DNA of 16,462 bases from a virus. Lineage: Duplodnaviria; Heunggongvirae; Uroviricota; Caudoviricetes. The DNA is taken from IMG/VR virus record IMGVR_UViG_3300000059_000156, positions 1 through 16,462 of that record; one strand, 5' to 3'. The position numbers were made by a program, and so were the translations under genes. The notes under the pieces were generated by a model. That model ran no database searches and had not been told where the DNA came from. It was given only the letters and a program-made list of their open reading frames with translations. Numbering within the stretch: position 1 is the stretch's first letter; each line of letters begins with the position of its first letter. Below are positions 1-15,824 of the stretch, piece after piece.

Positions 1-34
1 CGGGATTGCAACCCCGGATATCTAAGTGACGCAT

Positions 35-55
35 AGCCGCGTTAGCGGTTTTTTT
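35..55 (+). terminator. Candidate intrinsic terminator ending an upstream plus-strand gene outside the window
   Basis: Stem AGCCGC (35-40) / GCGGTT (45-50, one G-U pair), loop GTTA, followed by a T-run to 55. Short stem, so modest confidence. Confidence 0.35.
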
Positions 56-136
56 ATGCGTAAAGTACAGCTACATCTAAATTATGGTGGGCTGGGCAGG
101 GCCATCGTAAGATGGGCCGGTTTCACTTAGGCCGGT

Positions 137-195
137 TGTTGCAACCTTGTCCAGCTCACCACCCAATGATTGCAACCTGACGGTGGTGAGTTTTA
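137..195 (+). promoter_or_regulatory. Repeat- and hairpin-containing leader of the antirepressor gene (candidate operator/attenuator region)
   Basis: 9-bp perfect inverted repeat CTCACCACC (155-163) / GGTGGTGAG (182-190) followed by TTTTAT (191-196), ~20 nt before the SD of the 217 ORF. The 18-nt loop contains GATTGCAACC (168-177); the same 10-mer is at 4-13 and a palindromic variant GTTGCAAC at 138-145. Direct repeat GGCCGGTT at 115-122 and 130-137. Confidence 0.3.
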
Positions 196-216
196 TCACT
201 AAGTGAGGTCAATATC

Positions 217-1011
217 ATGACAACTCAAATTTCCGCACAAACTCTTTCCCCAATCTCTCATCAAAATACGCTTGTCATCACCACCGAATTGCTTGCACAA
301 CTGTATGGGACTGAACAAGTCCGAATTCGTCAAAACTACTCTCGTAATGAAGGGCGGTTTGTTGAAGGGAGACATTATTTTTTGGTGGAAGGCGATGAAC
401 TACGGGAGTTGAAACGCAAAGTATCTCAAAGCTACTCTGTGAAAATTGCCAAAAATGTACGTACTATCATTCTCTGGACAGAACGCGGCGCAGCTCGCCA
501 TGCCAAAATGCTGGAAACAGAACAGGCCTGGGAAGTTTTCGAAAAGCTGGAAGATTGTTATTTTAGCCAGCGTCCAGAGAGGCGGAGTACAACTACCGAT
601 GACCGTACTCCCTTACGTGATGCCGTTAATATGCTGGTCGGTAAGAAAGGCATGATGTATCCCGATGCCTACACCATGATTCATCAACGCTTCGCCGTCT
701 CTCACATAGAACAACTGTCACAGACGCAAATGTTAGAGGCGATTGAATACATCCACTGCCTGCTACTCGATGAAAATCAGCCAACCATTCCGGATTTTTC
801 TTTTATCACCACTATCAAAAATGGAAAAGTGACAAGGATGCGCCATGTTGCCAAAGGCGAACATCTGATGACCTTTGACGCTTTCAAAGAGATCGCTGAG
901 CGGGCAGGGTATCTGGTGATCCACAGCGACAATCTGCGAAGTATGACACTGGATAAATTGATGGTAATGGGGAAAAAGTCGGCTGTATCTGTTGCTGATT
1001 CAGCATTTTGA
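217..1011 (+). CDS. Phage antirepressor-like protein (ORF6N/Bro-N-type N-terminal domain)
   Basis: 264-aa ORF with SD-like GTGAGGT about 8 nt upstream of the ATG. The N-terminal stretch VITTELLAQLYGTEQVRIRQNYSRNEGRFVEGRHYFLVEGDELRELK fits my recollection of the ORF6N domain pattern of phage antirepressors. Family assignment is from memory, not a search. Confidence 0.7.
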   Translation: MTTQISAQTLSPISHQNTLVITTELLAQLYGTEQVRIRQNYSRNEGRFVEGRHYFLVEGDELRELKRKVSQSYSVKIAKNVRTIILWTERGAARHAKMLETEQAWEVFEKLEDCYFSQRPERRSTTTDDRTPLRDAVNMLVGKKGMMYPDAYTMIHQRFAVSHIEQLSQTQMLEAIEYIHCLLLDENQPTIPDFSFITTIKNGKVTRMRHVAKGEHLMTFDAFKEIAERAGYLVIHSDNLRSMTLDKLMVMGKKSAVSVADSAF

Positions 1012-1390
1012 CAGGTTGTTTGGGGTGGAAATACTCTATTTGCGCTTAGGATACTTGTTAGCTACTTCCACTTTTGTCACAAAGCGGACTATCTGGCTGA
1101 GCTGAGGGTCCGCAGTGAGTGAGGATCGAACATTTAAGCGTCGGTACTGATGACGGATTTGAGGTATTTAAAATATTACAGGAGCTAGTGTGGATGTGAC
1201 AGACATAAAAGTGGATGCAGTCAGAAAAGATATATGTATAGCAGGCTTCTTCGAGGACTAGATCAATCAATAAGATTTAGATAAAATTGCAGTGTTAAAT
1301 AAAAAGACTAGTAGTATTTAAACTTTAAGTGCGTTAGTAAAGTCGTGCAATTATATAAAACTAACGTTTTCTGAATGTTTGGAGAGTAAA

Positions 1391-2086
1391 ATGTTAGAAC
1401 CGCCAAAGAATTATAATGAAATGTTACCCATGCTCCATAAGGCAACTTTTATTACTACATTTATATTTTACCTATCATTGGTTATTTATGGCTACATACC
1501 ATTGGTTGGCATTAATACCAAGTACATTCCACCAATCAAAGACTACGAAGAGTTTATTAAATGGATATTAACATTCGGTATATTACCAATTGCATTCTCA
1601 ATTTTTTGGTCTGTGATTAGTGGAGTTTTAGATCTACATAATAACGTGGCAAAAATTCTTGGAATAAGAAAAGCATGGAATAATTACTTAATTGTTAAAC
1701 CATTGGCGCAAGTTGCAGGCGTTACAAGAAAATTAACTAGTGATGAATCCTCCAAAGTAATGAACAAACTGTATTACCCAGAAGTTAATGAGTTAAAAGA
1801 TAGACATTATGTTGAGCTCTTCTGGAATAAAGTTTATTACTTTTGGGTTTTCTTTGAACATACTGTGATTGCATTTATTACTGTTTTAGTAATAAGTTTT
1901 GCTAAATTAACCCATTTATTCTCTGTGACTGGTTCTTTAAAAATTCTTTGGTTGTGGGTTATTTTTATTGTTGTCTTTAATTTTCTTATTTTTATAGCAT
2001 CCGTTAAACCCAGAACTGAAGGCCAAGTCAGACAAATACCTGATGATAAGATAAAGGAATTTTTTAAAAATAACAGTATTTTTTAA
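1391..2086 (+). CDS. Hypothetical integral membrane protein (about 4 predicted TM helices), AT-rich island gene
   Basis: The ORF track starts at a TTG at 1379; I prefer the ATG at 1391, which has SD GGAGAG (1381-1386) 4 nt upstream. Four long hydrophobic stretches (e.g. FITTFIFYLSLVIYGYIPLVGI, ILTFGILPIAFSIFWSVISGVL, VYYFWVFFEHTVIAFITVLVISF, ILWLWVIFIVVFNFLIFIASV). Very AT-rich coding sequence. No family recognised. Confidence 0.6.
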   Translation: MLEPPKNYNEMLPMLHKATFITTFIFYLSLVIYGYIPLVGINTKYIPPIKDYEEFIKWILTFGILPIAFSIFWSVISGVLDLHNNVAKILGIRKAWNNYLIVKPLAQVAGVTRKLTSDESSKVMNKLYYPEVNELKDRHYVELFWNKVYYFWVFFEHTVIAFITVLVISFAKLTHLFSVTGSLKILWLWVIFIVVFNFLIFIASVKPRTEGQVRQIPDDKIKEFFKNNSIF

Positions 2087-2752
2087 ATGAGGCTAGTTTT
2101 GAATTACAAAATAAATGGAATGATTATACGTTCAGAAAATGCAGCAAAACCGCATACTATGCCATCTAACTATCTCTGTAACTATATTGAAAATTCTGTT
2201 AAAAATGGCATAGCCCTTGATTTCGGATGTGGAAAGCTTAGATATTCAGAACAACTAGTAAATAAATTTGAAGCTGTGACATTTTTAGATTCCAGAAAAC
2301 AGTTAGAAAGAGTGCAAATTATCAGAGGCGTACAAACCACAATTCCAGAGTATGTGGCTAATAATTATAAAAATGCTAATGTTGTCCCTTTTGAAAGTAT
2401 AGATAAAATAAAAGATAATTATGATTTCATACTTTGCGCAAACGTGCTTTCCGCAATTCCATGTAAATCAACAATTTACAAAATCATCAATGAGATTGGG
2501 AGATTATTAAAAAATGATGGTGAAGCAATTATTGTTAATCAATACAAAAGCTCATATTTCAAAAAGTATGAGACTGGAATTAAACATTTGCATGGATATA
2601 TATACCAAAACTCTCGCAATGCTTTCTATTATGGCTTATTGGATGAGAATATTGTAAGTAAAATTTGCTTAGATAACAATTTAGCAGTAATAAAGTCATG
2701 GAGCAAAGCTGGCAGTTCATATGTGGTTGTTGGTAAAAATAAACATAATTAG
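2087..2752 (+). CDS. Class I SAM-dependent methyltransferase-fold protein (substrate unknown; no DNA-methyltransferase catalytic motif seen)
   Basis: Start ATG overlaps the upstream stop (TAAATG at 2084-2089), indicating translational coupling. Canonical Rossmann-MTase motifs at canonical spacing: motif I ALDFGCGK (aa 43-50), post-I acidic residue in VTFLDSR (aa 64-70), motif II YDFILCANVL (aa 112-121), motif III LLKNDGEAIIV (aa 140-150). No (D/N)PP(Y/F/W) motif, so not a typical N6A/N4C DNA MTase. Confidence 0.6.
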   Translation: MRLVLNYKINGMIIRSENAAKPHTMPSNYLCNYIENSVKNGIALDFGCGKLRYSEQLVNKFEAVTFLDSRKQLERVQIIRGVQTTIPEYVANNYKNANVVPFESIDKIKDNYDFILCANVLSAIPCKSTIYKIINEIGRLLKNDGEAIIVNQYKSSYFKKYETGIKHLHGYIYQNSRNAFYYGLLDENIVSKICLDNNLAVIKSWSKAGSSYVVVGKNKHN

Positions 2753-3079
2753 TAAATTTAAAAATAATATTAGAGGGTGCCATTTTCTTATTACTTATTA
2801 ACTCACTGGGGTAGGGGCAACACGCCCCACCTCATCAAGTTACTGCAGGATTACAGACTTTTGTCAAAACGTTGGAAAAATTCAGTACAAACTTTTCCAT
2901 GTTTTTCCTAATCATAGATAATGATGCTCACTTATGTTAACAGCTTCTTGTACATAACGGTCTTCTTCAACAGGACAGCTATAAGTGAAGAAATAAAGTC
3001 GATAAACTATAAAGAGGCTCCAAATAAATATTATTCAATGAAGCCTGCTGTTTATTATTTGTTATTATTAAATCGCTAC

Positions 3080-3979
3080 TTATAATTCAACAATTTTTAG
3101 TATTATATCAATATTATTTAGCCTTGCAATCTCTGATGAATCGTTTGCAATTTTATCTTTTAAATTATCAATGTTAATCATATCTTCAGAGCTAATACAA
3201 ACCATATCACCTTGGTTAACTTTTGATTTGTTCACTATGGCTTGAATAACAGACAGATCGTCCATTACACCTCTCAGGAATTTAACCATGCTTTGATCCT
3301 TGAAATCAGATATCGATTTTGAACGTTGCTTACGTTGGATTGTTCCTTTTGTAATTATTTCGTTAATTTCTTTTAAACCGGCAAGCATATCAGATATGCT
3401 TCCTTCGCAACTCATCCTGTGTTTAATAGCATTGCGATTAATAACATTGAGTATTATTTCGAGTGAATCTCTATCATCCCATGGCGATAATAATGTATAA
3501 TCCTGATGGCGATGAATGGCATCAAGCATATCAAGGATCATATTTTCATCTGCTTTATCGCAAAGTTCATTTACAAAATAGCTGGGGTCGATTACTTTAC
3601 AATAACTTGGAACTGAGCATTTTGAGCTTTTACAAAACCCAAAAATATATAAAAAAGGGTATATGTCTTTTAGACTCTTTCCTGATTTATTTTCTTTTTC
3701 AAAGGCTGCGATTGTTTTTTTAATTTTTGCCGGGGTTGCTTTCGTTGTAACTTGAACTGCTATCATGTTTTTATTGTCAGCTAAATCAATGGCGGGAAAG
3801 TTAACTTTAATCTGATTCATGTTTTCCAGTTCCCCCATTTTCAGTGCGCGAAACATATAAATGGTCAATGACTCAATCATTCTTTCCATGTCATGAAAGC
3901 CAGTCTGTTTGCGTTGTTCGATATAAAGCTGAAGTAGCGCAATATCTTTCTGTAAGTTACTAATAAGTGGGGCAATCAT
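3080..3979 (-). CDS. SMEK-like domain protein (N-terminal SMEK-type domain, uncharacterised C-terminal region)
   Basis: 299-aa ORF with AAGGA SD 9 nt upstream of the ATG on the minus strand. The N-terminal segment NQIKVNFPAIDLADNKNMIAVQVTTKATPAKIKKTIAAF (aa 55-93) matches the hallmark I remember for SMEK domains (N-(F/A)-x-AIDL-x-D ... IA-x-QVT-(S/T) ... K-x-K-x-T-(I/L)-x-x-F). From memory only. Confidence 0.6.
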   Translation of the reverse strand: MIAPLISNLQKDIALLQLYIEQRKQTGFHDMERMIESLTIYMFRALKMGELENMNQIKVNFPAIDLADNKNMIAVQVTTKATPAKIKKTIAAFEKENKSGKSLKDIYPFLYIFGFCKSSKCSVPSYCKVIDPSYFVNELCDKADENMILDMLDAIHRHQDYTLLSPWDDRDSLEIILNVINRNAIKHRMSCEGSISDMLAGLKEINEIITKGTIQRKQRSKSISDFKDQSMVKFLRGVMDDLSVIQAIVNKSKVNQGDMVCISSEDMINIDNLKDKIANDSSEIARLNNIDIILKIVEL

Positions 3980-4512
3980 AGCTAATAATCCTTTTCAATT
4001 AAGTAGGGGATGTGTTTGAGCTTCTTTATTTGACTGTTAGTTTAATTTCTTGTTTTCATATTAACAAGCTCTACAATTTTATCAAGATTTCTCAAAAACT
4101 AATCCTCCGTGTAAATCCACTAACTATACTGAATTTATTCCGCTGTAAAACATGTCCGCTCATGGCTGTGAGTTCAACGGGTCGATGTAACGCCATCCAC
4201 TCAGTAAAATTGTGTAATTCCAGTGAGCAGGCGAATCTTCAGTATGCTCTAGTTTCTTACTCACACCTGCTTATGCTTTAACTATGTACAATGTAGATAA
4301 ACTCTCATGTTGATTTATCGCCATGATCACATTTCCGGAAGAAAAATTTTGTTTGTAACCTTGCTAGATGAGACAGTATAGATATCATTACATATGAAAC
4401 AGTACATTAGGGAACACTGAAGGCCGTAACTTTAAAAAATATAATTAATTGTACATAATTTTATAACCATCAAGATGGTGGCAATTATATAAGTAATAAT
4501 AAGGGTTGATTA

Positions 4513-5865
4513 ATGATTAAATTCACAGAAAAGGAAATACAAAATTACATATGGGAAAATAGGAACAATTTTCCCGAACTGCTTATTGAACCTGCAGGTC
4601 TTGAAGTACTTGAATTCAACGAAGATCTCTCTGATGTAACAGCACAACTGCTAATAAAAAACAGAATAAATAGTAAACTATCCAATCTTCACTCTAAGCT
4701 TTATGGACTGGAATTTATCGGCTGCGAAGTTCCTTTAGAACAAAATTCAAACTCAACAATTAGAGCCGATTTTTTGGCTATATTCTGTGATGATACTGGG
4801 CTTGCTGTCATAGAGCTTAAAAAAAGTGAACAAACTGAAAGGCAAGCATTCACTGAATTGTTAGCATATTCAAACCATATGACAACATTATTTCCATCCA
4901 TGACGAAAAATGACAGTGTGTATATTTTAATATCACCAATGGAAACCAGAATAGCACGTGATGCTGTCATCCAAAGTTTAATATTTGACAATAGGGATAT
5001 CATTACTTTAATTCCAACATTCTCTGATCCTCTTGATATTACATCTCTTAAACTTGAATTATGGATTCCAGACCAAACAGAGTTAGCGACTTTCTCAAAT
5101 ATTGCATTTAGAGAAGATAATTTTAGTGTCTGTAAATTATCCTGGGAGTATGACGCAGAGCGATGGGATGCAGCTAGAGGAGAAGAACTTTTACATTCAT
5201 TTGTTAGTCAATTTGATAACATTTCCTGCCTTGCAGCTCAGTATATGGAAGAATCTGGAGTTCATGGTTTTACTTATTGCTCTCAGTTATGGCCTGAATT
5301 ATCTCAGGCATTACCTTTTACGAATTCATTAGTACTAGTTGGCATGAATCCTTATGCTGTCGGGAGTGTCCAGCATTTATCCACAGAAGACGATAACTAT
5401 GATGATATTCCAGACCCAAATTCTTACACTCCTCACATATCTGAATTAATTGGTAAACTAGGTGAAGGAGAACTATATGAGGCTAATATTGATGTCCTAA
5501 GTGGTTTACATTGTACATGGATCTCTCAATTATATCGTATAGGTAAGCAGGTAATTGAACTCACCACTAGAAATACAGATGGGAAATACGTCCACGTTGA
5601 ATATGGCTTTATGAATTGGGAAATCTATCAAAGGTCTCTACTTGAGGATGTTTTCTGTGAAAACTTCGCTATTAGGTCTACAGGTTTAATACGACATCTC
5701 TATACTGACATTCTTAAATTAGATTATGATTTTTGTAAAAATAACGGATTGGAAAATCACCCTATTCATGGAGACATGCCATACTTAGGTGTCAATTTTC
5801 TTAAATCCCACCAGCACTTTAGAGAATTTATTTTGCGAATGTTCTATGCCGAAATAGATGCGTAG
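4513..5865 (+). CDS. Predicted PD-(D/E)xK-family nuclease-like protein with a large uncharacterised C-terminal region
   Basis: 450-aa ORF with SD AAGGG 8 nt upstream. N-terminal motif E72 ... RAD86FLAIFCDDTGLAVIE101LK103 has the D-x15-ExK spacing typical of restriction-endonuclease-fold active sites. The remaining ~340 aa are unrecognised. AT-rich. Confidence 0.65.
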   Translation: MIKFTEKEIQNYIWENRNNFPELLIEPAGLEVLEFNEDLSDVTAQLLIKNRINSKLSNLHSKLYGLEFIGCEVPLEQNSNSTIRADFLAIFCDDTGLAVIELKKSEQTERQAFTELLAYSNHMTTLFPSMTKNDSVYILISPMETRIARDAVIQSLIFDNRDIITLIPTFSDPLDITSLKLELWIPDQTELATFSNIAFREDNFSVCKLSWEYDAERWDAARGEELLHSFVSQFDNISCLAAQYMEESGVHGFTYCSQLWPELSQALPFTNSLVLVGMNPYAVGSVQHLSTEDDNYDDIPDPNSYTPHISELIGKLGEGELYEANIDVLSGLHCTWISQLYRIGKQVIELTTRNTDGKYVHVEYGFMNWEIYQRSLLEDVFCENFAIRSTGLIRHLYTDILKLDYDFCKNNGLENHPIHGDMPYLGVNFLKSHQHFREFILRMFYAEIDA

Positions 5866-6422
5866 TGAGATTTTTTGGTTTATCTCTGCTGGAGAAAATT
5901 CATGGGTGAGGAAAGAGATAGATAATATTGAAAATAAAATCTTCAAAAGATGTGGAAATAAAGACATGATCTAAAATTTTTTGGCATTCATTTCATATGA
6001 AACAGCCCTTCTAAAAACTATACAGGCATGGATGATATTTTCTTATGATTTTTTAGTTGTAATTTATCTTTACTATATAATATATGGGGGGATTGTCGCC
6101 AGCTATTCACCGACTATCAAATATCAATAACTCCTGGCAGTTCTGTAAGGTATAGACATACAAATCGGCCTGAAGATTACGGATAGTTTCTTAAGGTCCG
6201 TTCCTGGCACAAAGTGGACTGTCAAATGAAATTCGGCTCCACGCCATAGATGTGTCAGCTCATATCTTATCTAATACACACAATAACTTTCTCATTCTTG
6301 GAGAATTATTTTTTTAAGGGTAGGTGTTGACGTTAGAGCAAAAGAATGGTGATTTTTTTGATGTGTATTACGTTGGAACTGATGGGAATAACTATCTGTT
6401 TTCAACGCACTGCTAATTTATC

Positions 6423-6444
6423 AAGGCCCTTTGATCAGGGCCTT
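6423..6444 (-). terminator. Perfect 8-bp hairpin just downstream of the minus-strand ImmA operon; possible terminator or protein-binding palindrome
   Basis: AAGGCCCT (6423-6430), loop TTGATC, AGGGCCTT (6437-6444), ~25 nt beyond the stop of the 6469-7074 gene on the minus strand. No clean U-tract on either strand, so terminator function is uncertain. Confidence 0.3.
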
Positions 6445-6468
6445 CGAAAGACTGTTGGACCGAGAGAG

Positions 6469-7074
6469 TTACTTGCGTTTAAAAAGGTATTTTGTCACGA
6501 CCAGCACGAGGCCGAATACCTCTGTCAAAGTACCGCCCATGTACAACTGGAGCGTTAAGTCTTTAAATACAAGCCATTCAGCACCAGTGGCAAAAAATAC
6601 ACCATTCATTATCAAAAGCTGGCAAGCAAGGATAATAAGGAACCATTTGCCATAGCGTTTTTTTAGATCGATTTCAGCTTCAAAATCTTTGTTGTTGAGT
6701 TGTTTGCGCTCATGCTCAGTATCAAGTGAATTCACCTGTTTCACAGATGTGAACTCGGTCAAGATTTTACTCTCAGTACGGGTGACTTGTTGAGAGGGGG
6801 TAGGAATTGGAATTCTTTTGATTGACGCAGCTACAGCCATTTTGCGAGCTTCGGCAGCTCTTTTTCTGGCTATTCCGTGAATACGGGCAGACGGTTTTTT
6901 TGGAGCGTGCGAAACCTTTGGCTGAGGTGAAGTTTCGTCAGGAGACTGAACCGGAGTTTCATCGTCCTCCGGCTCAACCTCTTCTGCTAACTGACGGTGT
7001 AGGTTGAGGGAATCCTTCAGTCGGCGTGCAACTTCCTGTTTGAAACGGCTGTTAAAATCGTCATCCGATGGCAT
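6469..7074 (-). CDS. Hypothetical membrane protein: acidic/Pro-rich N-terminal region, basic middle, two C-terminal TM helices
   Basis: 201-aa ORF starting 9 nt after the stop of the ImmA-like gene (operon). C-terminal hydrophobic segments WFLIILACQLLIMNGVFFATG and LTEVFGLVLVVTKYLF; N-terminus EEVEPEDDETPVQSPDETSPQP looks low-complexity/disordered. Confidence 0.7.
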   Translation of the reverse strand: MPSDDDFNSRFKQEVARRLKDSLNLHRQLAEEVEPEDDETPVQSPDETSPQPKVSHAPKKPSARIHGIARKRAAEARKMAVAASIKRIPIPTPSQQVTRTESKILTEFTSVKQVNSLDTEHERKQLNNKDFEAEIDLKKRYGKWFLIILACQLLIMNGVFFATGAEWLVFKDLTLQLYMGGTLTEVFGLVLVVTKYLFKRK

Positions 7075-7083
7075 TCTAAAGCG

Positions 7084-7572
7084 TTACCCCAACCTCAAGT
7101 TCTTTAAACGATAAGTCATCGCATCGTCAGATACGCCAAAATAATGCGCCATTATATAACTTGGTTGGCCGTCAGCGTGCAGTTTTCTGACCTCATCAAC
7201 CGGCATCAGAAGTTCTGCTGCGAACTTGTTCGCAAAAATTTCATCAGGATGCGTTCCGGCGCTTGCGGTTTCGCCACGTAAATCAACGTACTCATATTCA
7301 TCACTATGCGATGCTTGCCGGGCGATGTAATGCCCCAACTCATGCCCACATGAAAAACGTTGACGAACTTTGTTGTCATCACTGTTTAGAAAGATCGCTG
7401 GATCTTGATCTTTTTGTTTAATCAGTGCGCCAGAAACTTTCCCAGGAAGATCGGTAATAAAAACATCTAATCCCATGTCGTGAGCAATTTTCGCTGGATC
7501 AACAGGGAAACCACGCCCGCACCAGAACGTGTCCAGCACTCGCCGGGCGTGCTCTCTTGGGTTGGTAGCCAT
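7084..7572 (-). CDS. ImmA/IrrE-family zinc metallopeptidase-like protein
   Basis: 162-aa ORF with strong SD (GGAGGAG) upstream of the ATG on the minus strand. HEXXH zinc-binding motif in SCGHELGHYIA; size and motif context are typical of ImmA/IrrE (COG2856-type) peptidases of mobile elements. Confidence 0.8.
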   Translation of the reverse strand: MATNPREHARRVLDTFWCGRGFPVDPAKIAHDMGLDVFITDLPGKVSGALIKQKDQDPAIFLNSDDNKVRQRFSCGHELGHYIARQASHSDEYEYVDLRGETASAGTHPDEIFANKFAAELLMPVDEVRKLHADGQPSYIMAHYFGVSDDAMTYRLKNLRLG

Positions 7573-7948
7573 AGCTCCTCCAGTTACTGCATTACGATTA
7601 ATGGTCGAAATATAGACAGCATGTTCCGTACCACATTCCTGTAAAAGTGCAAATTCTGCACTTCTGGTACGATATTAACTGTTAGTAGTAAAGTCTTCCA
7701 GATAAATCACTTTAAAATCTTGTGAATTGCTTGCTTTTTACGCTGCATTGTGGATGGCTCAATGTTTCCAGTAAAAACATACAGGATAATCATGAGATTA
7801 GTGGTTTTTTAGGCGTCCATATGTTTCTGAAAAATACAGGTCTAACCTGATCTTATCGTTGAGATTTTTTGTACTCAGTATGTGTGAACGATTCGACCAG
7901 GTGACTGTGTACGTGAAGAAGACCGCCCTTAATATTTTAAATGTGCAA

Positions 7949-7964
7949 CCCCTCAGAAGAGGGG
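7949..7964 (-). terminator. Candidate terminator of the 7971-8204 minus-strand gene
   Basis: Perfect 6-bp GC stem CCCCTC / GAGGGG with 4-nt loop AGAA, 7 nt past the stop codon on the minus strand. The downstream minus-strand sequence (UUGCACAUUUAAAAUAUU) is only moderately U-rich. Confidence 0.35.
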
Positions 7965-7970
7965 CTACTC

Positions 7971-8204
7971 TCACTTCTGCAGTATCTCGCCAATACCTGC
8001 CAGATTCTCGTCCATCTTGTCACCGTTTTCGATAAGGATGGAGTTGAGCCGATTCAGTTGCATAGCAATTTCAAGTTTGATTAAGGTATCCACCGATACA
8101 CCAGTTTCTTTTGCTAACTTAGTAAGAGCCGCAGCTCGATTGGCTAAATTAAAATCATCGAACTCATAACGACTTCTGCACGGCTGGTTGCCTAACGTAC
8201 CCAT
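7971..8204 (-). CDS. Hypothetical small protein (77 aa)
   Basis: ORF with SD GAGGAA about 8 nt upstream of the ATG on the minus strand, followed by a hairpin. No family recognised; the segment LTKLAKETGVSVDTLIKLE could be HTH-like, but that is speculative. Confidence 0.6.
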   Translation of the reverse strand: MGTLGNQPCRSRYEFDDFNLANRAAALTKLAKETGVSVDTLIKLEIAMQLNRLNSILIENGDKMDENLAGIGEILQK

Positions 8205-8446
8205 AGTGATTCCTCATGATATAAAGACCCAACAATATAAATTACCAGGCACATCATAAGATGGGGTTCCAGCCCATATTTTCAAATATTTGCAAGTATC
8301 ACCGTTCAGTCTAAAAAGTTGGATGATGATTTAACGAGCCATAACAAAACCCTGCCTCGGAGGTTTTTTCTTTTTTATAGAACTCAGCGGCGTGAAAACG
8401 AATAATAAATTGTGCAAATAATGCAATTTTTTTATTCGAGGTAATT

Positions 8447-9088
8447 ATGAAAACCTTCTATGAGGACTGGCCTGAAACTTTCGTTAGCCGGTTAGATATG
8501 TTACGAGCTCTGGATGATCGCGGCTCTACCCGGAGGCTCTATCTTGAGCGGACCGGGGCAATATTTGACGCTCTGGCAGAAGAGATACGTACAGCCGTTG
8601 CCGGGCATCCTGAAATCGACGCGAGTGAACTTGATATCGGGCCGCTGTATCGCTATTACAAACGTGGAGAAAAGGGGAATTCGCTGGCTGACTTACTTAT
8701 TAAATTGGCTCCACCAACCTGTGAACGGGTTCGTATATCTCCTGAAGTGTACACAATCCCGTATTTGTTTTTTGCACTGTTGATAGCGCAAGGCGCTGAC
8801 AACGATGCCCGCGATTTTTTCAATATGATGATGCGACCGTTAATCATTGCTTACCGTTTCAAACAACTGGCGCGCTACCTTGGCACGAAGGGCGGAGGAC
8901 GGCCACAGCACAGATTAAAAAGCGAAGCCATTGAACTGGCTGATCGTTTTTTTACTGAAAACCCGACAGCGCCATTATCGCGTGGTGTGCAATACATATC
9001 CGGTATTTTTGTGGCGAAATACTCTGACCCACCTGCAGCGTCGACGATTAGAAAATGGTTAATTTCAATTTACAGGAGTGATAAATAA
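8447..9088 (+). CDS. Hypothetical protein (213 aa), prophage accessory gene of unknown function
   Basis: ORF with SD GAGG 6 nt upstream of the ATG; backbone-like GC content; no recognisable motif. Confidence 0.7.
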   Translation: MKTFYEDWPETFVSRLDMLRALDDRGSTRRLYLERTGAIFDALAEEIRTAVAGHPEIDASELDIGPLYRYYKRGEKGNSLADLLIKLAPPTCERVRISPEVYTIPYLFFALLIAQGADNDARDFFNMMMRPLIIAYRFKQLARYLGTKGGGRPQHRLKSEAIELADRFFTENPTAPLSRGVQYISGIFVAKYSDPPAASTIRKWLISIYRSDK

Positions 9089-9096
9089 TGACCATA

Positions 9097-9145
9097 AACG
9101 GTTTAATCCCCTATAAAACCGTTTAATAAAATTCACGACGTGAAT
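9097..9145. promoter_or_regulatory. Two dyad elements downstream of the 8447-9088 gene: a 9-bp inverted repeat (possible terminator) and a 15-bp perfect palindrome (possible operator)
   Basis: AAACGGTTT (9097-9105) / AAACCGTTT (9116-9124) separated by 10 nt; then the palindrome ATTCACG-A-CGTGAAT at 9131-9145. Confidence 0.3.
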
Positions 9146-9239
9146 ATAATTGTTCATTATTCCCTCATTGTATCTGGCGTTATGACAAATGCCATAAAAT
9201 ACTGTATAAATGCACAGGTAATGGCGTTAGGGGGAAGAC

Positions 9240-9419
9240 ATGAATATTCAAGAATCTATAGGCGAACTACCGGAAACATGCCGGGCTGTTATCAAGCGTA
9301 AGGACGGACACATCGTTGGTGTGCGTGTTCTGACTGATGATGAACGGATTGCCAGCCTGATGGCGTTTCTCGAGTTGGCAGAAATAGCTGGATATACTAT
9401 TACACCCCCTGACGCGTAA
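9240..9419 (+). CDS. Small hypothetical protein (59 aa), absent from the supplied ORF track
   Basis: My own translation: MNIQESIGELPETCRAVIKRKDGHIVGVRVLTDDERIASLMAFLELAEIAGYTITPPDA. ATG preceded by SD GGGGGA (about 6 nt spacing); TAA at 9417-9419 followed by a terminator-like hairpin. Just under the likely 60-aa cutoff of the track. Confidence 0.45.
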   Translation: MNIQESIGELPETCRAVIKRKDGHIVGVRVLTDDERIASLMAFLELAEIAGYTITPPDA

Positions 9420-9435
9420 AACACGGTATAATATC

Positions 9436-9467
9436 GGTGCTGGATTGAACACCCGGCACCATTTTCT
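9436..9467 (+). terminator. Candidate intrinsic terminator after the small 9240-9419 ORF
   Basis: Stem GGTGCTGG (9436-9443) / CCCGGCACC (9453-9460), 8 bp including one G-U pair, 9-nt loop, followed by ATTTTCT (9461-9467). A TATAAT hexamer also sits at 9427-9432 just upstream. Confidence 0.4.
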
Positions 9468-9496
9468 GAACACTGCCGCGCCACCTGGAGTTAACC

Positions 9497-10093
9497 ATGG
9501 CGCAGCATTCATTTATCAGGGTATCCGGCGGTTCGCTAATACCCGCGACACCAGACACGCAACGCTGGTTGACTGAACGAGTCAAACCAGGTGCTGTTGT
9601 GTATGCAGATTTCAAACAGGCGCGTAATCCCGCGTTTCATCGTAAATTTTTCTCACTTCTCAACCTGGGCTTTGATTACTGGCATCCGTCCGGAGGGGCT
9701 ATTTCTCCTGCGGAGCGCGAACTGGTTCACGGCTACGTTAAATTACTGGCGTATTACGGTGGACACGGCGATGTCATGGCAGAGCTGGCTGATCAGTATC
9801 TTCTCGATGAATCGGAAAAGCGCGCGGGGAATATCAGTGCGGTGAAGTCGTTCGAGGCGTTTCGCGCATGGGCGATTATGGAAGCTGGGTTTTATGACGT
9901 TCATCAGATGCCAGACGGCAGTTTGATGCGCGTACCTCGTTCAATCTCGTTTGCTGCGATGGACGATCTTGAGTTCGGTCAACTGTATTCAGCCGTTTTA
10001 GATGTGCTGTGGAATTATATTTTGTTCCGCACGTTTGCCTCTCAGGAGGCCGCTGAAAATGCTGCCGCGCAGCTGTTGGATTACACATCATGA
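9497..10093 (+). CDS. Conserved lambdoid-prophage nin-region protein (I recall it as DUF1367-like)
   Basis: 198-aa ORF with SD GGAG 6 nt upstream; its stop overlaps the next gene's start (ATGA). Family name from memory of similar prophage proteins, not verified. Confidence 0.75.
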   Translation: MAQHSFIRVSGGSLIPATPDTQRWLTERVKPGAVVYADFKQARNPAFHRKFFSLLNLGFDYWHPSGGAISPAERELVHGYVKLLAYYGGHGDVMAELADQYLLDESEKRAGNISAVKSFEAFRAWAIMEAGFYDVHQMPDGSLMRVPRSISFAAMDDLEFGQLYSAVLDVLWNYILFRTFASQEAAENAAAQLLDYTS

Positions 10094-10383
10094 AAAAAAT
10101 CGACCTGAGAAAAGCTGCACGTGGTCGCGCTTGTACTGTGCGTATCCCCGGTGTGTGCAATCACAAGCCTGAAACCAGCGTACTGGCTCATTATCGTCTC
10201 GCCGGAACGTGCGGCACAGCCATCAAACCTCACGATATGCAGGGCGCTATCGCCTGCAGTGCGTGTCACGATGCCATCGACGGACGTACAAAAACGGATT
10301 ACGAGCGTGATTCCTTATTACTGATGCACGCTGAGGGAGTTTTCAGAACACTGGCTATCTGGCGCGATGAGGGGGTTATCTGA
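10090..10383 (+). CDS. ybcO: YbcO-like (DUF1364) putative Cys-rich nuclease-like protein of lambdoid nin regions
   Basis: 97-aa ORF. LRKAARGRACTVRIPGVCNHKPETSVLAHYRLAGTCGTAIKP ... IACSACHDAIDGRT matches my recollection of E. coli DLP12 YbcO almost motif for motif. Translationally coupled on both sides. Confidence 0.75.
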   Translation: MKKIDLRKAARGRACTVRIPGVCNHKPETSVLAHYRLAGTCGTAIKPHDMQGAIACSACHDAIDGRTKTDYERDSLLLMHAEGVFRTLAIWRDEGVI

Positions 10384-10622
10384 TGAATAACGAGTATTTA
10401 TTGGAATATACCCGCATAAAACTGCGCGCTGCATTGCGGGATTTGTCTGGTGGTTCTAAGGGGCAACTGGAAGCATTGTGTGAGCACCCACCGGCAGACA
10501 AAAACGCATACCCACGCAAACATATTCACCGTGTGCAGCTGGAGGACCGGACCGTTGATGCTCTGGTTACGCCAGTTTACGCTCTGGAAAGTTTTAGCAG
10601 ACGTCGCCCGCGCCGCCGATGA
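10383..10622 (+). CDS. Hypothetical small protein (79 aa) with Arg-rich C-terminus
   Basis: Start overlaps the ybcO-like stop (TGATG) and its stop overlaps the next start (ATGA), so it sits inside a tightly coupled operon. No family recognised. Confidence 0.55.
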   Translation: MNNEYLLEYTRIKLRAALRDLSGGSKGQLEALCEHPPADKNAYPRKHIHRVQLEDRTVDALVTPVYALESFSRRRPRRR

Positions 10623-11053
10623 ATGATTTTGAATTTGCTGATTCATCCTGGCGGCGTTCTGTGAACTCGCTGGATGCAAGTCAGCAAGCGTGGTTGCGTT
10701 ATTGCTACGGTGGTAACCTGGCGTTCAAACACCAAACAGCTATTTGTGAGGCTGTCTGGAGTCGCTATAAAGGACACATCCCCGCGTCAACTCAGAGAAA
10801 AGTAGTTAAGCGCCTGCTTTCGTTGGTGTGGTTGTCCGTGCAGGCGGTTGCAGCAGCAAATAAACGCGAGGATTTTAAGGAGATGGCCGGGTCTGCGCTA
10901 GCTGGAATGTTGTCTGTTTCTCGTTCCACCTGGTGCGAAACATACTCCCCGCACTGGGCAGGAATGAAAGAGGCGGTGAGAGCACTTGATGAAATGGCAC
11001 TTCTTGCAACTTTGCATCATTATCAGAACCATTTAGACGACGTTTGCGTATAA
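10619..11053 (+). CDS. Putative late-gene antiterminator (Q-like), assigned mainly by position
   Basis: 144-aa ORF immediately upstream of a promoter-like hexamer, a terminator hairpin and the lysis cassette, which is the canonical Q position in lambdoid phages. I cannot confirm Q family membership from sequence alone. Confidence 0.45.
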   Translation: MNDFEFADSSWRRSVNSLDASQQAWLRYCYGGNLAFKHQTAICEAVWSRYKGHIPASTQRKVVKRLLSLVWLSVQAVAAANKREDFKEMAGSALAGMLSVSRSTWCETYSPHWAGMKEAVRALDEMALLATLHHYQNHLDDVCV

Positions 11054-11054
11054 T
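11049..11054 (+). promoter_or_regulatory. Consensus -10 hexamer TATAAT, candidate late promoter (PR'-like) overlapping the Q-like stop codon
   Basis: Exact TATAAT at 11049-11054. No good -35 at 17 bp spacing: TTGCAT at 11012-11017 is too far and TTTAGA at 11032-11037 too close, which is not unusual for activator/antiterminator-dependent late promoters. Confidence 0.3.
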
Positions 11055-11118
11055 GCTTGCAAAACCGAACAAAATAGACCATATTTAACGCTAATTTGGT
11101 ATGTTGCCAAATTTCTAA

Positions 11119-11150
11119 GAACCTCGCCACGGCGGGGTTTTGTCGTTTCT
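11119..11150 (+). terminator. Intrinsic terminator between the Q-like gene and the lysis cassette (tR'-like)
   Basis: Stem CCTCGC (11122-11127) / GCGGGG (11132-11137) with one G-U pair, 4-nt loop CACG, extended by A-U pairs, followed by TTTTGTCGTTTCT (11138-11150). About 65 nt downstream of the TATAAT hexamer and 16 nt before the holin SD. Confidence 0.5.
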
Positions 11151-11165
11151 GAATCAGGAAAAATC

Positions 11166-11549
11166 ATGTCTGAACCTCTAACCGCTGGCGTTGCTGCTGG
11201 CTCGGCGGGGGTGACGTTTGCTGCGTTATTTCCTGAGGCAACACCTGCAGTGATGATCTGTGCGCTGGCAGGCGCAGCTCTCTATGTGTTGTCATCCGGG
11301 CAGCATCGATTCTGGAAGCAGGTTATTTTCGCACTCATTTCGTTTGTTGGCGGTGTGTATTGCGCTGAGACAGCGTCAGCAATCATTACCGGTATTCTGA
11401 ATGCGATGCTGAGTCACCTGAACCCTCCCGTAACAGTAAAAGTCTCTCCCGCCATTGGTGCACTGGTTGCATCAGTAATCAGCGTTACATCACTGTTGCG
11501 GATCATGTCACAAGCTCGTTTATGGAAATCAGATAAGGGGATGAAATAA
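11166..11549 (+). CDS. Putative holin (small membrane protein, first gene of the lysis cassette)
   Basis: 127-aa ORF with SD AGGA 7 nt upstream; 2-3 hydrophobic helices (AVMICALAGAALYVL, VIFALISFVGGVYCAETASAII, AIGALVASVISVTSLL) and a charged C-terminus; sits directly upstream of the endolysin. Confidence 0.6.
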   Translation: MSEPLTAGVAAGSAGVTFAALFPEATPAVMICALAGAALYVLSSGQHRFWKQVIFALISFVGGVYCAETASAIITGILNAMLSHLNPPVTVKVSPAIGALVASVISVTSLLRIMSQARLWKSDKGMK

Positions 11550-11824
11550 TGACCCTGCACTCTGTCCTCATCAATGCCAATGCAATTATCTGTCTGATGC
11601 TGGCACTGCGGTTAATGTTTTTTCAAAAAACAGGCCGCTATCGTTTTTTCATCTCACTAACTGCTTACCTGGCGATTCTGTCTGCTGCGTGGATAGCCCT
11701 ACGAATTTTTTACGGGAAATATACGCAGGTTGATCCCGCAGAGTTCTTTCTCAACCTCACCATCTGTATTGCTGTCTGGCGGGCACGAGGGAATATTTCA
11801 AAAATAACAGGAGACAGGTCATGA
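11549..11824 (+). CDS. Second small lysis-cassette membrane protein (holin/antiholin-like)
   Basis: 91-aa ORF whose start overlaps the previous stop; hydrophobic helices AIICLMLALRLMFF, FFISLTAYLAILSAAWIALRIF, FFLNLTICIAVW; overlaps the endolysin start (ATGA). Confidence 0.55.
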   Translation: MTLHSVLINANAIICLMLALRLMFFQKTGRYRFFISLTAYLAILSAAWIALRIFYGKYTQVDPAEFFLNLTICIAVWRARGNISKITGDRS

Positions 11825-12300
11825 CCGATCCTAAATGGCTAATTGAGGCTCGAAAAAACCTCGGCATTCGGGAAATGAAAGGGAAGCAACATGCTGCAGA
11901 AATTGTGCAGTACTGGAAAGATATTAAACGCGGCGGTATTAAGGATGACGAAACACCATGGTGCGCCGCCTTCACCGGAGCAATGCTGGAACGTGTTGGT
12001 ATTCGCTCAACGCGTTTTGAGTCTGCGAATTCTTATCTCGATTGGGGTAATGAACTGAAGGAACCCGCCTATGGATGCATTGCTATTCTGTCTCGGTCTG
12101 GCGGTGGTCACGTTGGCTTTGTTGTCGGGAAAAATGCCGCCGGGGATTTAATGATTTTGGGTGGTAACCAGGCAGATGAAGTAAATATCAAAGCTTTTTC
12201 TCGTTCCCGCATAACAGGCTATCGCTGGCCAGCAGGTCAAACGGATGTTCCACAATCACTTCCATTGGTGAATGCTGAGAAATCTATCTCAGAAGCGTAG
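11821..12300 (+). CDS. Endolysin, cysteine-peptidase type (CHAP / NlpC-P60-like; I recall this phage family as TIGR02594)
   Basis: 159-aa ORF. Candidate catalytic Cys in ETPWCAAFTGAM and His in SGGGHVGFVVG, with the Cys...His order typical of papain-like peptidoglycan peptidases. Position after two holin-like genes. Confidence 0.7.
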   Translation: MTDPKWLIEARKNLGIREMKGKQHAAEIVQYWKDIKRGGIKDDETPWCAAFTGAMLERVGIRSTRFESANSYLDWGNELKEPAYGCIAILSRSGGGHVGFVVGKNAAGDLMILGGNQADEVNIKAFSRSRITGYRWPAGQTDVPQSLPLVNAEKSISEA

Positions 12301-12307
12301 GTAAAAC

Positions 12308-12502
12308 GTGAAAAAACTTCTCTTAGCTGTCGCGTTCTTCACGATGGCAGGCTGCACACATTCGACATACACCGAAGCGACTCGCGCTGACGGCAGCAGT
12401 ATTAAACACGTGATGATCGCGCCGGGTACGAAGATTACTACTGCGAACGGTGGTTGTATTGATTCAACCGGGGCAGAGGCTTCATGCCTTGGTGGAAAAT
12501 AG
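12308..12502 (+). CDS. Small lipoprotein (64 aa); possibly spanin-related, but no i-spanin partner recognised
   Basis: GTG start with AGGT SD. Signal peptide plus lipobox LAVAFFTMAG-C (Cys16); small, Gly/Thr/Ala-rich mature part with two further Cys. No C-terminal TM segment. Confidence 0.5.
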   Translation: MKKLLLAVAFFTMAGCTHSTYTEATRADGSSIKHVMIAPGTKITTANGGCIDSTGAEASCLGGK

Positions 12503-12523
12503 GGTAATTTACTTTAACGAGAG

Positions 12524-12547
12524 GCCGCCTTTTTGTTTTAAGGCGGC
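12524..12547. terminator. Hairpin between convergent genes (lipoprotein gene on plus, 86-aa ORF on minus); candidate bidirectional terminator
   Basis: Stem GCCGCCTT (12524-12531) / AAGGCGGC (12540-12547) with a T-rich loop; 22 nt after the plus-strand stop and 15 nt after the minus-strand stop. No flanking U-tract outside the stem. Confidence 0.4.
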
Positions 12548-12561
12548 ACACATTCAACAGA

Positions 12562-12822
12562 TTAAGGTAACTGATTTGACCATTTTGTTGCGCGCCAGTT
12601 GTTCTGAACCATAATCTTCTGAAGTATCTCATCTGAAGGCTCTGCTTCGCCGCTTAGCCATTCTCTTAAAGTTGAACAATTTAGATAAGAGGAGTTCGCA
12701 CGATAAAAAGATACGATGGCGTCCTCTGATAACTTCTCAGGAAACTTTTTTGGGTCAGCTTCTTTTAATATTACGCTCATTAAGGCTTCAATTTTTTCTC
12801 TGTTCATTTTTTGCGTTCTCAT
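12562..12822 (-). CDS. Hypothetical protein (86 aa) encoded antisense to the late operon between lysis and packaging genes (moron-like)
   Basis: ORF in a locally AT-rich stretch (about 12.55-12.95 kb) with a protein-like, charged/helical composition. Weak SD for both candidate starts (12822 or Met6 at 12807). Lambda bor is a known opposite-strand gene in the equivalent slot, but this protein is not Bor-like. Confidence 0.4.
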   Translation of the reverse strand: MRTQKMNREKIEALMSVILKEADPKKFPEKLSEDAIVSFYRANSSYLNCSTLREWLSGEAEPSDEILQKIMVQNNWRATKWSNQLP

Positions 12823-13039
12823 GGTTGTTGTTTTTCTGTAATGATATCAATAAGTTCAAGATATATACATATATGGAAAACTTGTTCGGTAGTCTATCGA
12901 TACAGCACAAAAGGATGGCTCGCTGCCAAAGTGAAAGCTTACGCTGATAATCAGATACACAAAGCTGATGTATGCAAACAAGTACGCCGCGAGGCTACAG
13001 TTGAGTTTGATGAACCTGATGCGAGCCCCTAATTCCTGT

Positions 13040-13175
13040 CCTGAAAGGGAGATAGCCCCCTGGTCGCGGGTCCTTTCCGAAATCCAAAACACCGAGGGTC
13101 GGTAGACGCGCAAAAACTCACTCATTTTTAGTATTTTTTCATTTTGGGTATTTCCGGTTCCGGTGAGGATTTTTA
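13040..13175. other. Putative cos region (cosN/cosB) upstream of the terminase small subunit gene
   Basis: Position immediately 5' of the Nu1-like gene, as in lambda. The octamer TCGCGGGT at 13064-13071 is identical to the sequence I remember directly following the lambda cohesive end (GGGCGGCGACC-TCGCGGGT-TTTCGC). The rest is not obviously lambda-identical. Confidence 0.3.
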
Positions 13176-13742
13176 ATGGCAAGTCAGGCTGAGGTCGCAG
13201 CACATTTACTGCTATCTGATCGTCGTCTGCGCGATCTCGCAAAACTTCCGGGAGCTCCAGTCCCACAGGGACGTGGCGATTGGGACCTTGATGCCTGGCG
13301 CCATTTTTATATTCATTATCTCCGGAGTAATAGACGCGACACAATTGGTACTGACGAACCGGAAGTGGGGGACAATTCTCCCGAAAAAAATCGCGAGCAG
13401 TGGCTGAAAAATGAGGAACGACAGGAGCGAATCCTGATGGCACGAGTAAAACGCCGCATTCTCGCTAAACGCTACGCGCCAATTGAATTAATTAGCGTTG
13501 CTGTATCTCGCGTCGCCGTTGAATTACGTACCCGCGTCGAGTCGTGGCCACCACGATTGAAAAAGGTGTGGCCTGAAATGCCGCAGGAGGCGAGCAGTGT
13601 ATTACGAGAGGAGCTGGCGATAGCCCTGAATGAACTGGCAGACATACGAGTCGACTTCAGCGATTACGATGTCAGCGATATCGAACGCGATCTCGACAGG
13701 GTTGAATCCCTTGCGCGTGACGATACCGATGACGGGGGTTAA
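13176..13742 (+). CDS. Terminase small subunit (Nu1-like position and architecture)
   Basis: 188-aa ORF with SD GGTGAGGA 6 nt upstream; basic N-terminal putative DNA-binding region and acidic C-terminus; immediately upstream of and overlapping the gpA-like large subunit. Weak direct similarity to lambda Nu1. Confidence 0.65.
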   Translation: MASQAEVAAHLLLSDRRLRDLAKLPGAPVPQGRGDWDLDAWRHFYIHYLRSNRRDTIGTDEPEVGDNSPEKNREQWLKNEERQERILMARVKRRILAKRYAPIELISVAVSRVAVELRTRVESWPPRLKKVWPEMPQEASSVLREELAIALNELADIRVDFSDYDVSDIERDLDRVESLARDDTDDGG

Positions 13743-15591: not shown

Positions 15592-15824
15592 TGACGTCGC
15601 GCGAGGTTTTAACAGAACGACTGCTGGAAGCGGAAATCGCTCTGCACAAATTATTAACGGGTAAATCGACCGTGTCGCTGTCTCACGGCGATTCAGCAGG
15701 AAATAACCGGAGCTATCAATACTCGCAGGCGAGTATTGAGCAGCTCCGAACGTACATTATCGAGCTGAAATCACAGCTCGGTCTGAGTACGGGACGCCGT
15801 CGGCCCGTGGGAGTTCGATTATGA
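15591..15824 (+). CDS. W: Head-tail joining / head completion protein, lambda gpW homolog
   Basis: 77-aa ORF aligning to lambda gpW (LHKLLTGK ... LRTYIIELKSQLGLSTGRRRP vs LHDLMTGK ... [21 protein letters not shown]); start overlaps the terminase stop (TAATG). Confidence 0.85.
   Translation: MTSREVLTERLLEAEIALHKLLTGKSTVSLSHGDSAGNNRSYQYSQASIEQLRTYIIELKSQLGLSTGRRRPVGVRL

Follow-up and report, generated by a model that had tools for sequence, protein, structure and literature searches.

What does a phage-borne peptidase of the ImmA/IrrE type do when no repressor gene adjoins it and its operon partner encodes a membrane protein? The question is raised by a 16,462-nucleotide stretch of viral DNA (IMG/VR record IMGVR_UViG_3300000059_000156, positions 1 to 16,462; Caudoviricetes), called the window below, in which two genes follow each other on the minus strand. 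The first, rmrA-like gene (7084-7572) encodes a 162-residue stand-alone M78 (ImmA/IrrE-type) zinc metallopeptidase, the predicted antitoxin. The second, rmrT-like gene (6469-7074) encodes a 201-residue membrane protein that is predicted to be a pore-forming or depolarizing toxin. We consider it probable that the pair is a RosmerTA-type toxin-antitoxin (TA) or abortive-infection cassette, carried as an independently transcribed moron in a lambdoid Escherichia prophage. An adjacent repressor would then be missing because the peptidase forms a module with a pore-forming membrane toxin of the RosmerTA type.

Both proteins were annotated with hidden Markov model (HMM) profiles, a check proposed in an earlier reading of this DNA that was based on the sequence only. 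The Pfam profile Peptidase_M78 (PF06114) matched residues 32-157 of the 162-residue protein over the whole profile length (E 7.7e-18). The HEXXH motif is H77-E78-L-G-H81, and the third zinc ligand is E111, located in an E-x-x-A-N-x-F-A-x-x-L-L-M-P motif. The ImmA/IrrE assignment and the HEXXH motif of the sequence-only reading are thereby confirmed. Residues H77, E78, H81 and E111 are about 99% conserved across 166 distinct homologues. Such conservation of the zinc ligands and the catalytic Glu indicates that catalysis is under selection and argues that it matters beyond mere binding. Neither a helix-turn-helix (HTH) nor a GAF domain was found in the peptidase by the Pfam and PADLOC profile searches. 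Its top PADLOC match was CapP (E 2.4e-25), covering only positions 3-151 of the 242 in that profile, and PADLOC models of RmrA matched at E values down to 5.8e-12 through profile positions of about 145-291, which represent the peptidase part. The sole sequence match in the PDB was CapP (7t5t), and in a fold search the structure predicted for a close relative in the family resembled both IrrE (3dti) and CapP (7t5t).

The 201-residue protein matched none of the Pfam, NCBIfam and PADLOC families searched (PADLOC at E ≤ 0.1) and was assigned to phrog_5346, for which no function is known. An AlphaFold2 model, built on a 59-sequence alignment, showed a two-helix hairpin membrane protein with a mean predicted local distance difference test score (pLDDT) of 67. 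Codons 4-32 (6979-7065, minus strand) encode a conserved amphipathic N-terminal helix, modeled at a pLDDT of 86-90, with a V/L-x-x-L-K-x-T/S-L-N-x-H/Q-R-Q motif that is kept among the Enterobacterales members of the alignment. The helix is followed by a disordered linker (codons 33-118; 6721-6978, minus strand), first acidic and proline-rich and then basic, for which the model gave a pLDDT of about 50 and no secondary structure. According to the alignments and the model, codons 119-197 (6484-6720, minus strand) encode a conserved juxtamembrane helix and a two-helix membrane hairpin. The modeled helices span residues 128-164, where the juxtamembrane helix runs into the first transmembrane segment (TM1), and residues 172-197. 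In a hydropathy scan TM1 was clear, and it was the only segment above threshold in the window protein and in Enterobacterales members L004-L007; in four distant homologues (L008-L011) both TM1 and TM2 passed. TM2 of the window toxin is less hydrophobic and contains an invariant Glu. The acidic, proline-rich part and the C-terminal membrane helices that had been read from the letters were therefore recovered, with TM1 as the one helix that the hydropathy scan accepts.

An exhaustive profile search for this family of proteins with two transmembrane helices (2TM family) returned 1720 cluster representatives at E ≤ 1e-3, of which 356 reached E ≤ 1e-10. Lengths ranged from 49 to 236 residues among the 150 best-scoring matches listed. 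The family layout consists of a variable N-terminus, a linker that varies from 0 to about 100 residues as judged from alignment gaps, and an extremely conserved C-terminal hairpin. Many members are nearly devoid of an N-terminal extension and have a total length of 107-125 residues. In the alignments D130, L137, K138, Q152, N157, T182, E185 and G188 of the window toxin are invariant or nearly so, and four of these, Q152, N157, T182 and E185, lie within the membrane helices.

The connection to an experimentally studied system came through the peptidase and then through profile comparison of the toxins. When the peptidase was searched by tblastn against sequenced phages, the best non-identical matches were gp32 of Gordonia phage Kita and its relatives (44% identity, E 5e-31); the same search with the toxin found nothing. 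A BLASTP comparison of the window peptidase with Kita gp32 gave 43% identity over 157 residues (E 1e-41), and gp32 has a Peptidase_M78 domain only, with no HTH. Kita gp32 (YP_009301393.1) and gp33 (YP_009301394.1) are the proteins RmrA_D25 and RmrT_D5 described by Ernits et al. 2023 (PMC10440598). Alignment of gp33 to the 2TM-family alignment by hhalign gave a probability of 92.4% (E 5.3e-7) and covered TM1, the loop, TM2 and the C-terminal T-x-x-E-V-x-G-L...LFK motif. The 2TM-family HMM matched gp33 at E 4.8e-10, and T182, E185 and G188 are retained as far as this protein. The order of the two genes is the same in Kita, where they overlap or nearly abut.

The functional properties of the Kita pair were established in E. 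coli (PMC10440598). RmrT_D5, of which the C-terminal region is membrane-localized, is toxic when produced alone; growth stops immediately and the cells are depolarized and permeabilized. RmrA_D25 supplied from a separate plasmid partly neutralizes RmrT_D5, and the native Kita operon guards E. coli against phages Bas54 and Bas59. Canonical RosmerTA confers anti-phage defense, and RmrA is the established antitoxin, rmrA deletions having been unobtainable (Millman et al. 2022).

The window pair and the Kita pair share an HTH-less, M78-only peptidase of about 160-180 residues, followed by an abutting gene for a small protein that has a two-helix membrane hairpin at its C-terminus, and both occupy a moron position in a temperate phage. 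They differ in the length of the toxin, which has 201 residues in the window and 119 in Kita; the window toxin has an extra N-terminal helix and a disordered linker of about 85 residues. The juxtamembrane L-K-K of the proteobacterial family is also absent in Kita, and the hosts belong to different phyla. Toxicity, neutralization and defense have been demonstrated for Kita, whereas the Escherichia version is known from its sequence. With canonical RosmerTA the window pair shares a two-gene organization of the TA-type defense kind, an M78 zinc-peptidase antitoxin and a toxin whose family is otherwise unknown. Canonical RmrA is different in having 360-400 residues and an N-terminal Xre HTH, against 162 residues and no HTH here, and the canonical toxin gene often comes first. 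Since the validated Kita RmrA has no HTH either, an HTH is not a defining feature of the wider RosmerTA family. By homology, the window pair is a relative of the D25-D5 subtype of RosmerTA, combining an M78 antitoxin, a toxin remotely homologous to RmrT and bicistronic linkage. Both protein families, the architecture and the gene order match the validated subtype; the differences are modest and consist of the longer toxin N-terminus, the proteobacterial host and a toxin missed by the PADLOC models searched. An HTH-less M78 peptidase with a membrane protein is therefore not the anomalous arrangement for which it had been taken, RmrA_D25/RmrT_D5 having already been described.

The association between the two families was examined at 73 loci with a substantial 2TM match, collected from genomes, viral contigs and metagenomes, 68 of which had enough upstream DNA. 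An M78 gene lay directly upstream on the same strand at 66 of these 68 loci (97%), representing 54 distinct pairs with gaps of -8 to +11 nucleotides. The possibility, named in the sequence-only reading, that homologues of the membrane protein never occur with ImmA-type genes is contradicted by these counts. The reverse approach gave the same picture: four peptidase homologues with 53-56% identity (from Pectobacterium, Silvimonas, Pseudoalteromonas and Salmonella), chosen blind to their neighbors, were all followed by a homologous 2TM gene. A scan of a genome collection with one genome per species gave three loci. The related loci are found in prophages, P4-like islands and metagenomes, and the positions vary. 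The module follows Q and precedes the holin gene in Enterobacter and Serratia, lies beside arsenic-resistance genes and AlpA in Leclercia, and is part of P4-like primase/AlpA/integrase islands in Pectobacterium and Silvimonas. It is found near tail-fiber genes in Salmonella and between tail genes and integrase in Kita. Another copy resides in a Plesiomonas prophage (L007), of which the repressor is a classical HTH_3 plus Peptidase_S24 protein, the self-cleaving cI/LexA type.

Two further observations concern the pairing of M78 peptidases with membrane proteins. On a single 1766-bp Logan contig a 277-residue protein (P0211) joins an M78 peptidase to a 2TM protein through a four-residue VSWV junction; a model of it gave a pLDDT above 90 for the peptidase domain and helices in the toxin part. 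It may be a natural fusion, the result of a lost stop codon or an assembly artefact. More distant HTH-less M78 peptidases (31-45% identity) also precede genes for small membrane proteins, of families unrelated to 2TM, in the P2-like OU784750 (L094), Mycobacterium phage Che9c (gp32/gp33; L095) and Pseudoalteromonas phage ACA1 (gp1/gp2; L096). The ACA1 peptidase is annotated as an antirepressor. A stand-alone M78 peptidase with a membrane protein thus seems to be a recurrent phage theme.

The layout of the operon was then compared with the surrounding DNA. The toxin gene is in frame with the peptidase gene and begins 9 nucleotides past the stop codon of the latter, and the spacer (7075-7083, minus strand) carries no separate strong Shine-Dalgarno sequence, which implies that the two genes are translationally coupled. 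The peptidase gene has its own Shine-Dalgarno sequence, GGAGGA (7576-7581, minus strand), 3 nucleotides 5' of the ATG, identified from the sequence and the upstream-region alignment. In the 398 bp upstream of the peptidase gene (7573-7970) no supported open reading frame (ORF) was found. A 58-residue ORF with a GTG start (7798-7974) had no family match, and nothing in 7573-7970 is conserved across homologous loci. When the upstream regions (about 400 bp) of five distant loci were aligned, conservation was limited to the GGAGGA sequence, so there is no hidden third component. A hidden HTH gene or conserved non-coding element was rejected on the same alignment and on an Rfam search that found nothing in this region. 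The sequence-only reading had seen neither a convincing ORF in 7573-7970 nor an HTH/XRE repressor gene adjoining the peptidase gene, and both statements stand, no repressor having been found in the operon or in this interval.

The nearest upstream gene is a 77-residue ORF (7971-8204, minus strand; phrog_5550), of which the segment LAKETGVSVDTLIKLE looks HTH-like by eye. Its best HTH match was MerR at a non-significant E of 0.13, searches of Pfam, PADLOC and NCBIfam gave no support, and a PDB search returned designed repeat proteins only, nothing meaningful. A terminator-like hairpin with a T-run, called by a terminator scan at 7837-7849 (minus strand), separates this ORF from the peptidase operon, which must therefore have its own promoter within 7582-7836. 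In Escherichia whittamii (L002), where the peptidase pair is 99% identical, an unrelated 92-residue ORF replaces the 77-residue ORF, and the latter is missing from all other contexts of the pair. As a cognate repressor the 77-residue protein was rejected on these grounds. The 77-residue gene is divergent from a 213-residue gene (8447-9088, plus strand; phrog_5215), the two separating the peptidase operon from the nin-type genes, and neither matches a family of known function.

Two sequence elements flank the pair. A 19-bp perfect palindrome, AAGTGCA-GAATT-TGCACTT, is located at 7645-7663, about 75 bp 5' of the peptidase start, and is closely followed by a possible -10 element, TATATT (about 7607-7612). 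The palindrome might serve as an operator; a 7-bp inverted repeat in 400 bp is within chance expectation. On the other side, a GC-rich 8-bp hairpin, AAGGCCCT-N6-AGGGCCTT, was read from the sequence at 6423-6444 (minus strand), 25 nucleotides past the toxin stop codon. Transcription may end at this hairpin, which has no U-tract and was not called by the terminator scan.

In the mechanism that we propose for a RosmerTA-type cassette, the toxin would be a small inner-membrane protein whose hairpin, with its invariant membrane-embedded Glu, would oligomerize and depolarize or permeabilize the membrane. The HTH-less M78 peptidase encoded upstream would be the antitoxin, kept in a fixed ratio to the toxin by translational coupling and holding it inactive. 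Upon infection by a sensitive phage neutralization would fail, the membrane would be depolarized and the infected cell would stop supporting phage growth. By homology to the studied system, the cassette would most likely provide abortive-infection-type defense, stabilization of the element, or both.

In the literature searched we found no description of how neutralization works in RosmerTA. The cytoplasmic portion of the toxin is the only family-wide partner that is available as a substrate of the peptidase, and we infer that neutralization proceeds by proteolysis of this part, which would comprise the N-terminal helix, the disordered tether and the juxtamembrane helix. The phage trigger would then block or out-titrate the peptidase. 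A more specific version, which we put forward tentatively and hold to be possible rather than probable, is that the peptidase is a proteolytic antitoxin that continuously cuts the tether or juxtamembrane helix of its own toxin, sensitive phages inhibiting the peptidase and thereby causing suicide of the cell. The N-terminal helix and disordered linker of the Enterobacterales proteins would in that case serve as a docking or recognition element. DdrO is cleaved at an L|R site. By analogy to the F|R site of CapH (PMC13228613), the invariant Leu137-Lys138 is a candidate cleavage site in the toxin. A DNA-damage signal of the CapP kind is unlikely as the trigger since the peptidase is devoid of the GAF and HTH domains that sense single-stranded DNA.

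Several observations weigh against a RosmerTA-type assignment and the mechanism attached to it. The window toxin resembles RmrT_D5 only remotely (about 30% over 61 columns) and only in the membrane hairpin; nothing in the Kita protein corresponds to its N-terminal helix and long linker. The L137-K138 dipeptide is also absent there, which weakens the idea of a cleavage site at this position. No RmrT model of PADLOC v2 matches the membrane protein, and the RmrA models fit only the peptidase portion, and worse than CapP does. For the Kita proteins themselves AlphaFold gave no RmrA_D25/RmrT_D5 complex and neutralization was partial (PMC10440598). A promoter scan found no consensus sigma-70 promoter upstream of the peptidase gene. 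Finally, two metagenomic loci have a 2TM gene without an M78 gene. In L063 (691-1748) it overlaps a dCTP-deaminase-like gene (Pfam DCD, 9e-25) by 4 nucleotides, and in L072 (2338-2960) it follows an ORF for a 102-residue protein that is unknown, indicating that the 2TM protein can work with non-protease partners.

The alternative that fares best is that cleavage activates the toxin in a gasdermin-like manner. The N-terminal helix and tether would auto-inhibit the protein until an infection-sensing peptidase cuts the tether, which would free the pore-forming hairpin and kill the cell. A conserved N-terminal helix, a variable disordered linker and a very conserved hairpin are an architecture that suits a protease substrate, and the catalytic residues of the peptidase are conserved. 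ImmA/ImmR and IrrE/DdrO are signal-dependent pairs of an M78 peptidase and a co-encoded partner, and to our knowledge all characterized M78 peptidases act on such a partner after a signal. CapP, for instance, acts on the co-encoded CapH in response to single-stranded DNA (PMC13228613). However, the Kita membrane protein is toxic in E. coli without the peptidase, and addition of the peptidase lowers toxicity (PMC10440598). Furthermore, the many family members of 107-125 residues leave little room for an inhibitory domain, and the 162-residue peptidase is without the GAF and HTH sensors used by CapP and IrrE. Bacterial gasdermins resemble the window pair in coupling a protease gene to a pore-forming membrane effector in defense, but this is a functional analogy only; the folds are unrelated, and gasdermin needs cleavage whereas the RmrT homologue is active without the peptidase. 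We regard activation by cleavage as improbable. The sequence-only reading had suggested a protease-controlled membrane effector with an abortive-infection-like role, which the Kita homology shows to be broadly right; what changes is the nature of the control, which would be neutralization, since a toxin that is toxic alone in Kita is probably not activated by cleavage.

A second alternative, to which we attach very little weight, is that the pair is a prophage induction switch, as had also been suggested. In that case an ImmA-like peptidase would cleave the repressor of its own prophage, a short and probably non-self-cleaving protein encoded about 12 kb away, while the membrane protein would tether or regulate the peptidase. 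ImmA, MpaR and similar M78 peptidases act as anti-repressor proteases in other elements. At the cI position of L001, a closely related E. coli prophage, lies a gene whose product of about 131 residues is annotated as no more than an HTH domain-containing protein, suggesting that it has no S24 domain, and this prophage also encodes an Ant antirepressor. These points are outweighed by the behavior of the Kita pair, which acts as a TA and defense system in a heterologous host without the phage repressor (PMC10440598), and by the mobility of the cassette. The peptidase-2TM linkage holds at 97% of loci with no repressor type linked to it, and the two genes move together, as a self-contained unit, among unrelated elements and positions, including P4-like islands and the Plesiomonas prophage with its S24 repressor.

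A reversal of roles is likewise very unlikely. Makarova and co-workers reportedly predicted in 2009 that COG2856 peptidases are toxins. The peptidase would then be an effector comparable to Lit, which cleaves EF-Tu, with an essential protein of the host or of a phage as its target, and the 2TM protein a membrane inhibitor or sensor; in favor are a source that labels the close peptidase homologue P0053 'toxin', the toxicity of the PD-lambda-2B Xre-peptidase fusion by itself (Vassallo et al. 2022) and the single pairing of a 2TM gene with a dCTP-deaminase-like enzyme, an effector type in other defense systems, but in Kita the membrane protein is the toxic, depolarizing component and the peptidase neutralizes it (PMC10440598), rmrA deletions are unobtainable in RosmerTA, and a 2TM hairpin with invariant polar residues in its membrane helices looks like an effector.

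ImmA of ICEBs1 (ImmA/ImmR) and the peptidases of phage ImmA-repressor pairs are likewise minimal M78 proteins of about 165 residues with an HEXXH...E arrangement on a mobile element. The window pair differs in having no adjacent HTH repressor, in lying outside an immunity or regulatory module and in having a membrane protein as its conserved partner. The likeness to CapP/CapH and IrrE/DdrO is confined to the peptidase domain, as found with PADLOC (CapP), by PDB sequence (7t5t) and by fold (3dti, 7t5t). CapP is a protein of about 280-290 residues that comprises peptidase, HTH and GAF domains and binds single-stranded DNA (PMC13228613). Both CapP and IrrE have these extra HTH and GAF domains for binding single-stranded DNA, and CapP has a cysteine-switch loop, whereas the window peptidase ends after the peptidase domain at residue 162 and has no Cys in the switch-loop region. 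It also has no CapH or DdrO partner; downstream are the 2TM gene, the hairpin and unrelated cargo, with no immune operon. PD-lambda-2 (Vassallo et al. 2022) is, like the window pair, a TA-like operon with an ImmA/IrrE-type peptidase domain, and serves E. coli defense, but it has three components (a HigB-like protein, an Xre-peptidase fusion and a P4 antitoxin-like protein), the peptidase protein is toxic and there is no membrane protein. The E101 TA module (Rousset 2021) was rejected as a match since it is a different system in which the toxin is encoded first.

The window belongs to a lambdoid prophage; from position 6196 on, it shares 97.6% identity with a prophage carried by E. coli Ecol_AZ159. 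The peptidase pair has the replication/nin genes on one side and Q on the other, and is encoded on the opposite strand to the nin, Q and lysis genes. In the related prophage the immunity region lies about 12 kb from this position. Other plus-strand genes in the window encode DUF1367, YbcO, Q, two holins, an endolysin-like protein and the large terminase. In comparison with the intact 672-bp Q gene of the E. coli prophage L001, a 1-bp deletion in a C-run near 10606 breaks Q of the window into two ORFs (10383-10622 and 10619-11053, plus strand). The prophage may accordingly be defective in late-gene activation, or the deletion may be a sequencing error. At the left end of the window a full-length C4 antisense RNA (Rfam RF01695, 77.7 bits; 80-166, plus strand) directly precedes the gene for an Ant/ORF6N antirepressor (217-1011, plus strand). 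Together they constitute antirepressor control of the P1/P7 immI type in a lambdoid prophage.

The pair is located at the edge of a cargo segment of about 5 kb (about 1250-6200) with a guanine-plus-cytosine (GC) content of about 30% that differs between prophages. The segment encodes an unknown 235-residue ORF product (1379-2086), a protein resembling S-adenosylmethionine-dependent methyltransferases (2087-2752), a SMEK-domain protein (3080-3979, minus strand) and a 450-residue protein with weak similarity to HSDR_N and restriction endonucleases (4513-5865). In prophages L001 and L002 it is replaced by entirely different cargo, and it is probably a hotspot for defense genes. The placement at an island boundary in the sequence-only reading holds insofar as the pair borders this low-GC variable cargo; the pair itself is inside the lambdoid prophage, between the nin genes and Q. 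In many prophages all that remains of the 2TM gene is its final 25-28 codons, sometimes with downstream DNA, located beyond the variable cargo (L001, 6271-6348; L002, 10129-10470; L027-L031, L033-L035, L077, L078, L080 and L088-L092). These remnants look like recombination scars, which suggests that the highly conserved 3' end of the toxin gene serves as a site of recombination through which cargo is exchanged.

Of 5426 complete E. coli genomes, 453 (about 8%) contain the peptidase pair, carried by a lambdoid prophage, and the cassette is annotated just as 'ImmA/IrrE family metallo-endopeptidase' and 'hypothetical protein'. Through the link to the validated Kita RosmerTA, both genes acquire a function that can be tested, and the homology explains a stand-alone ImmA-type peptidase without a neighboring repressor. 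The 2TM toxins, with the many cluster representatives found here and no Pfam entry, constitute a large family that has not been modeled. The compact version native to E. coli would be a convenient model for the mechanism of RosmerTA neutralization. If the peptidase is a proteolytic antitoxin, the RosmerTA class would gain its first mechanism, and the cassette would represent an enzyme-antitoxin TA system in which the antitoxin degrades the toxin.

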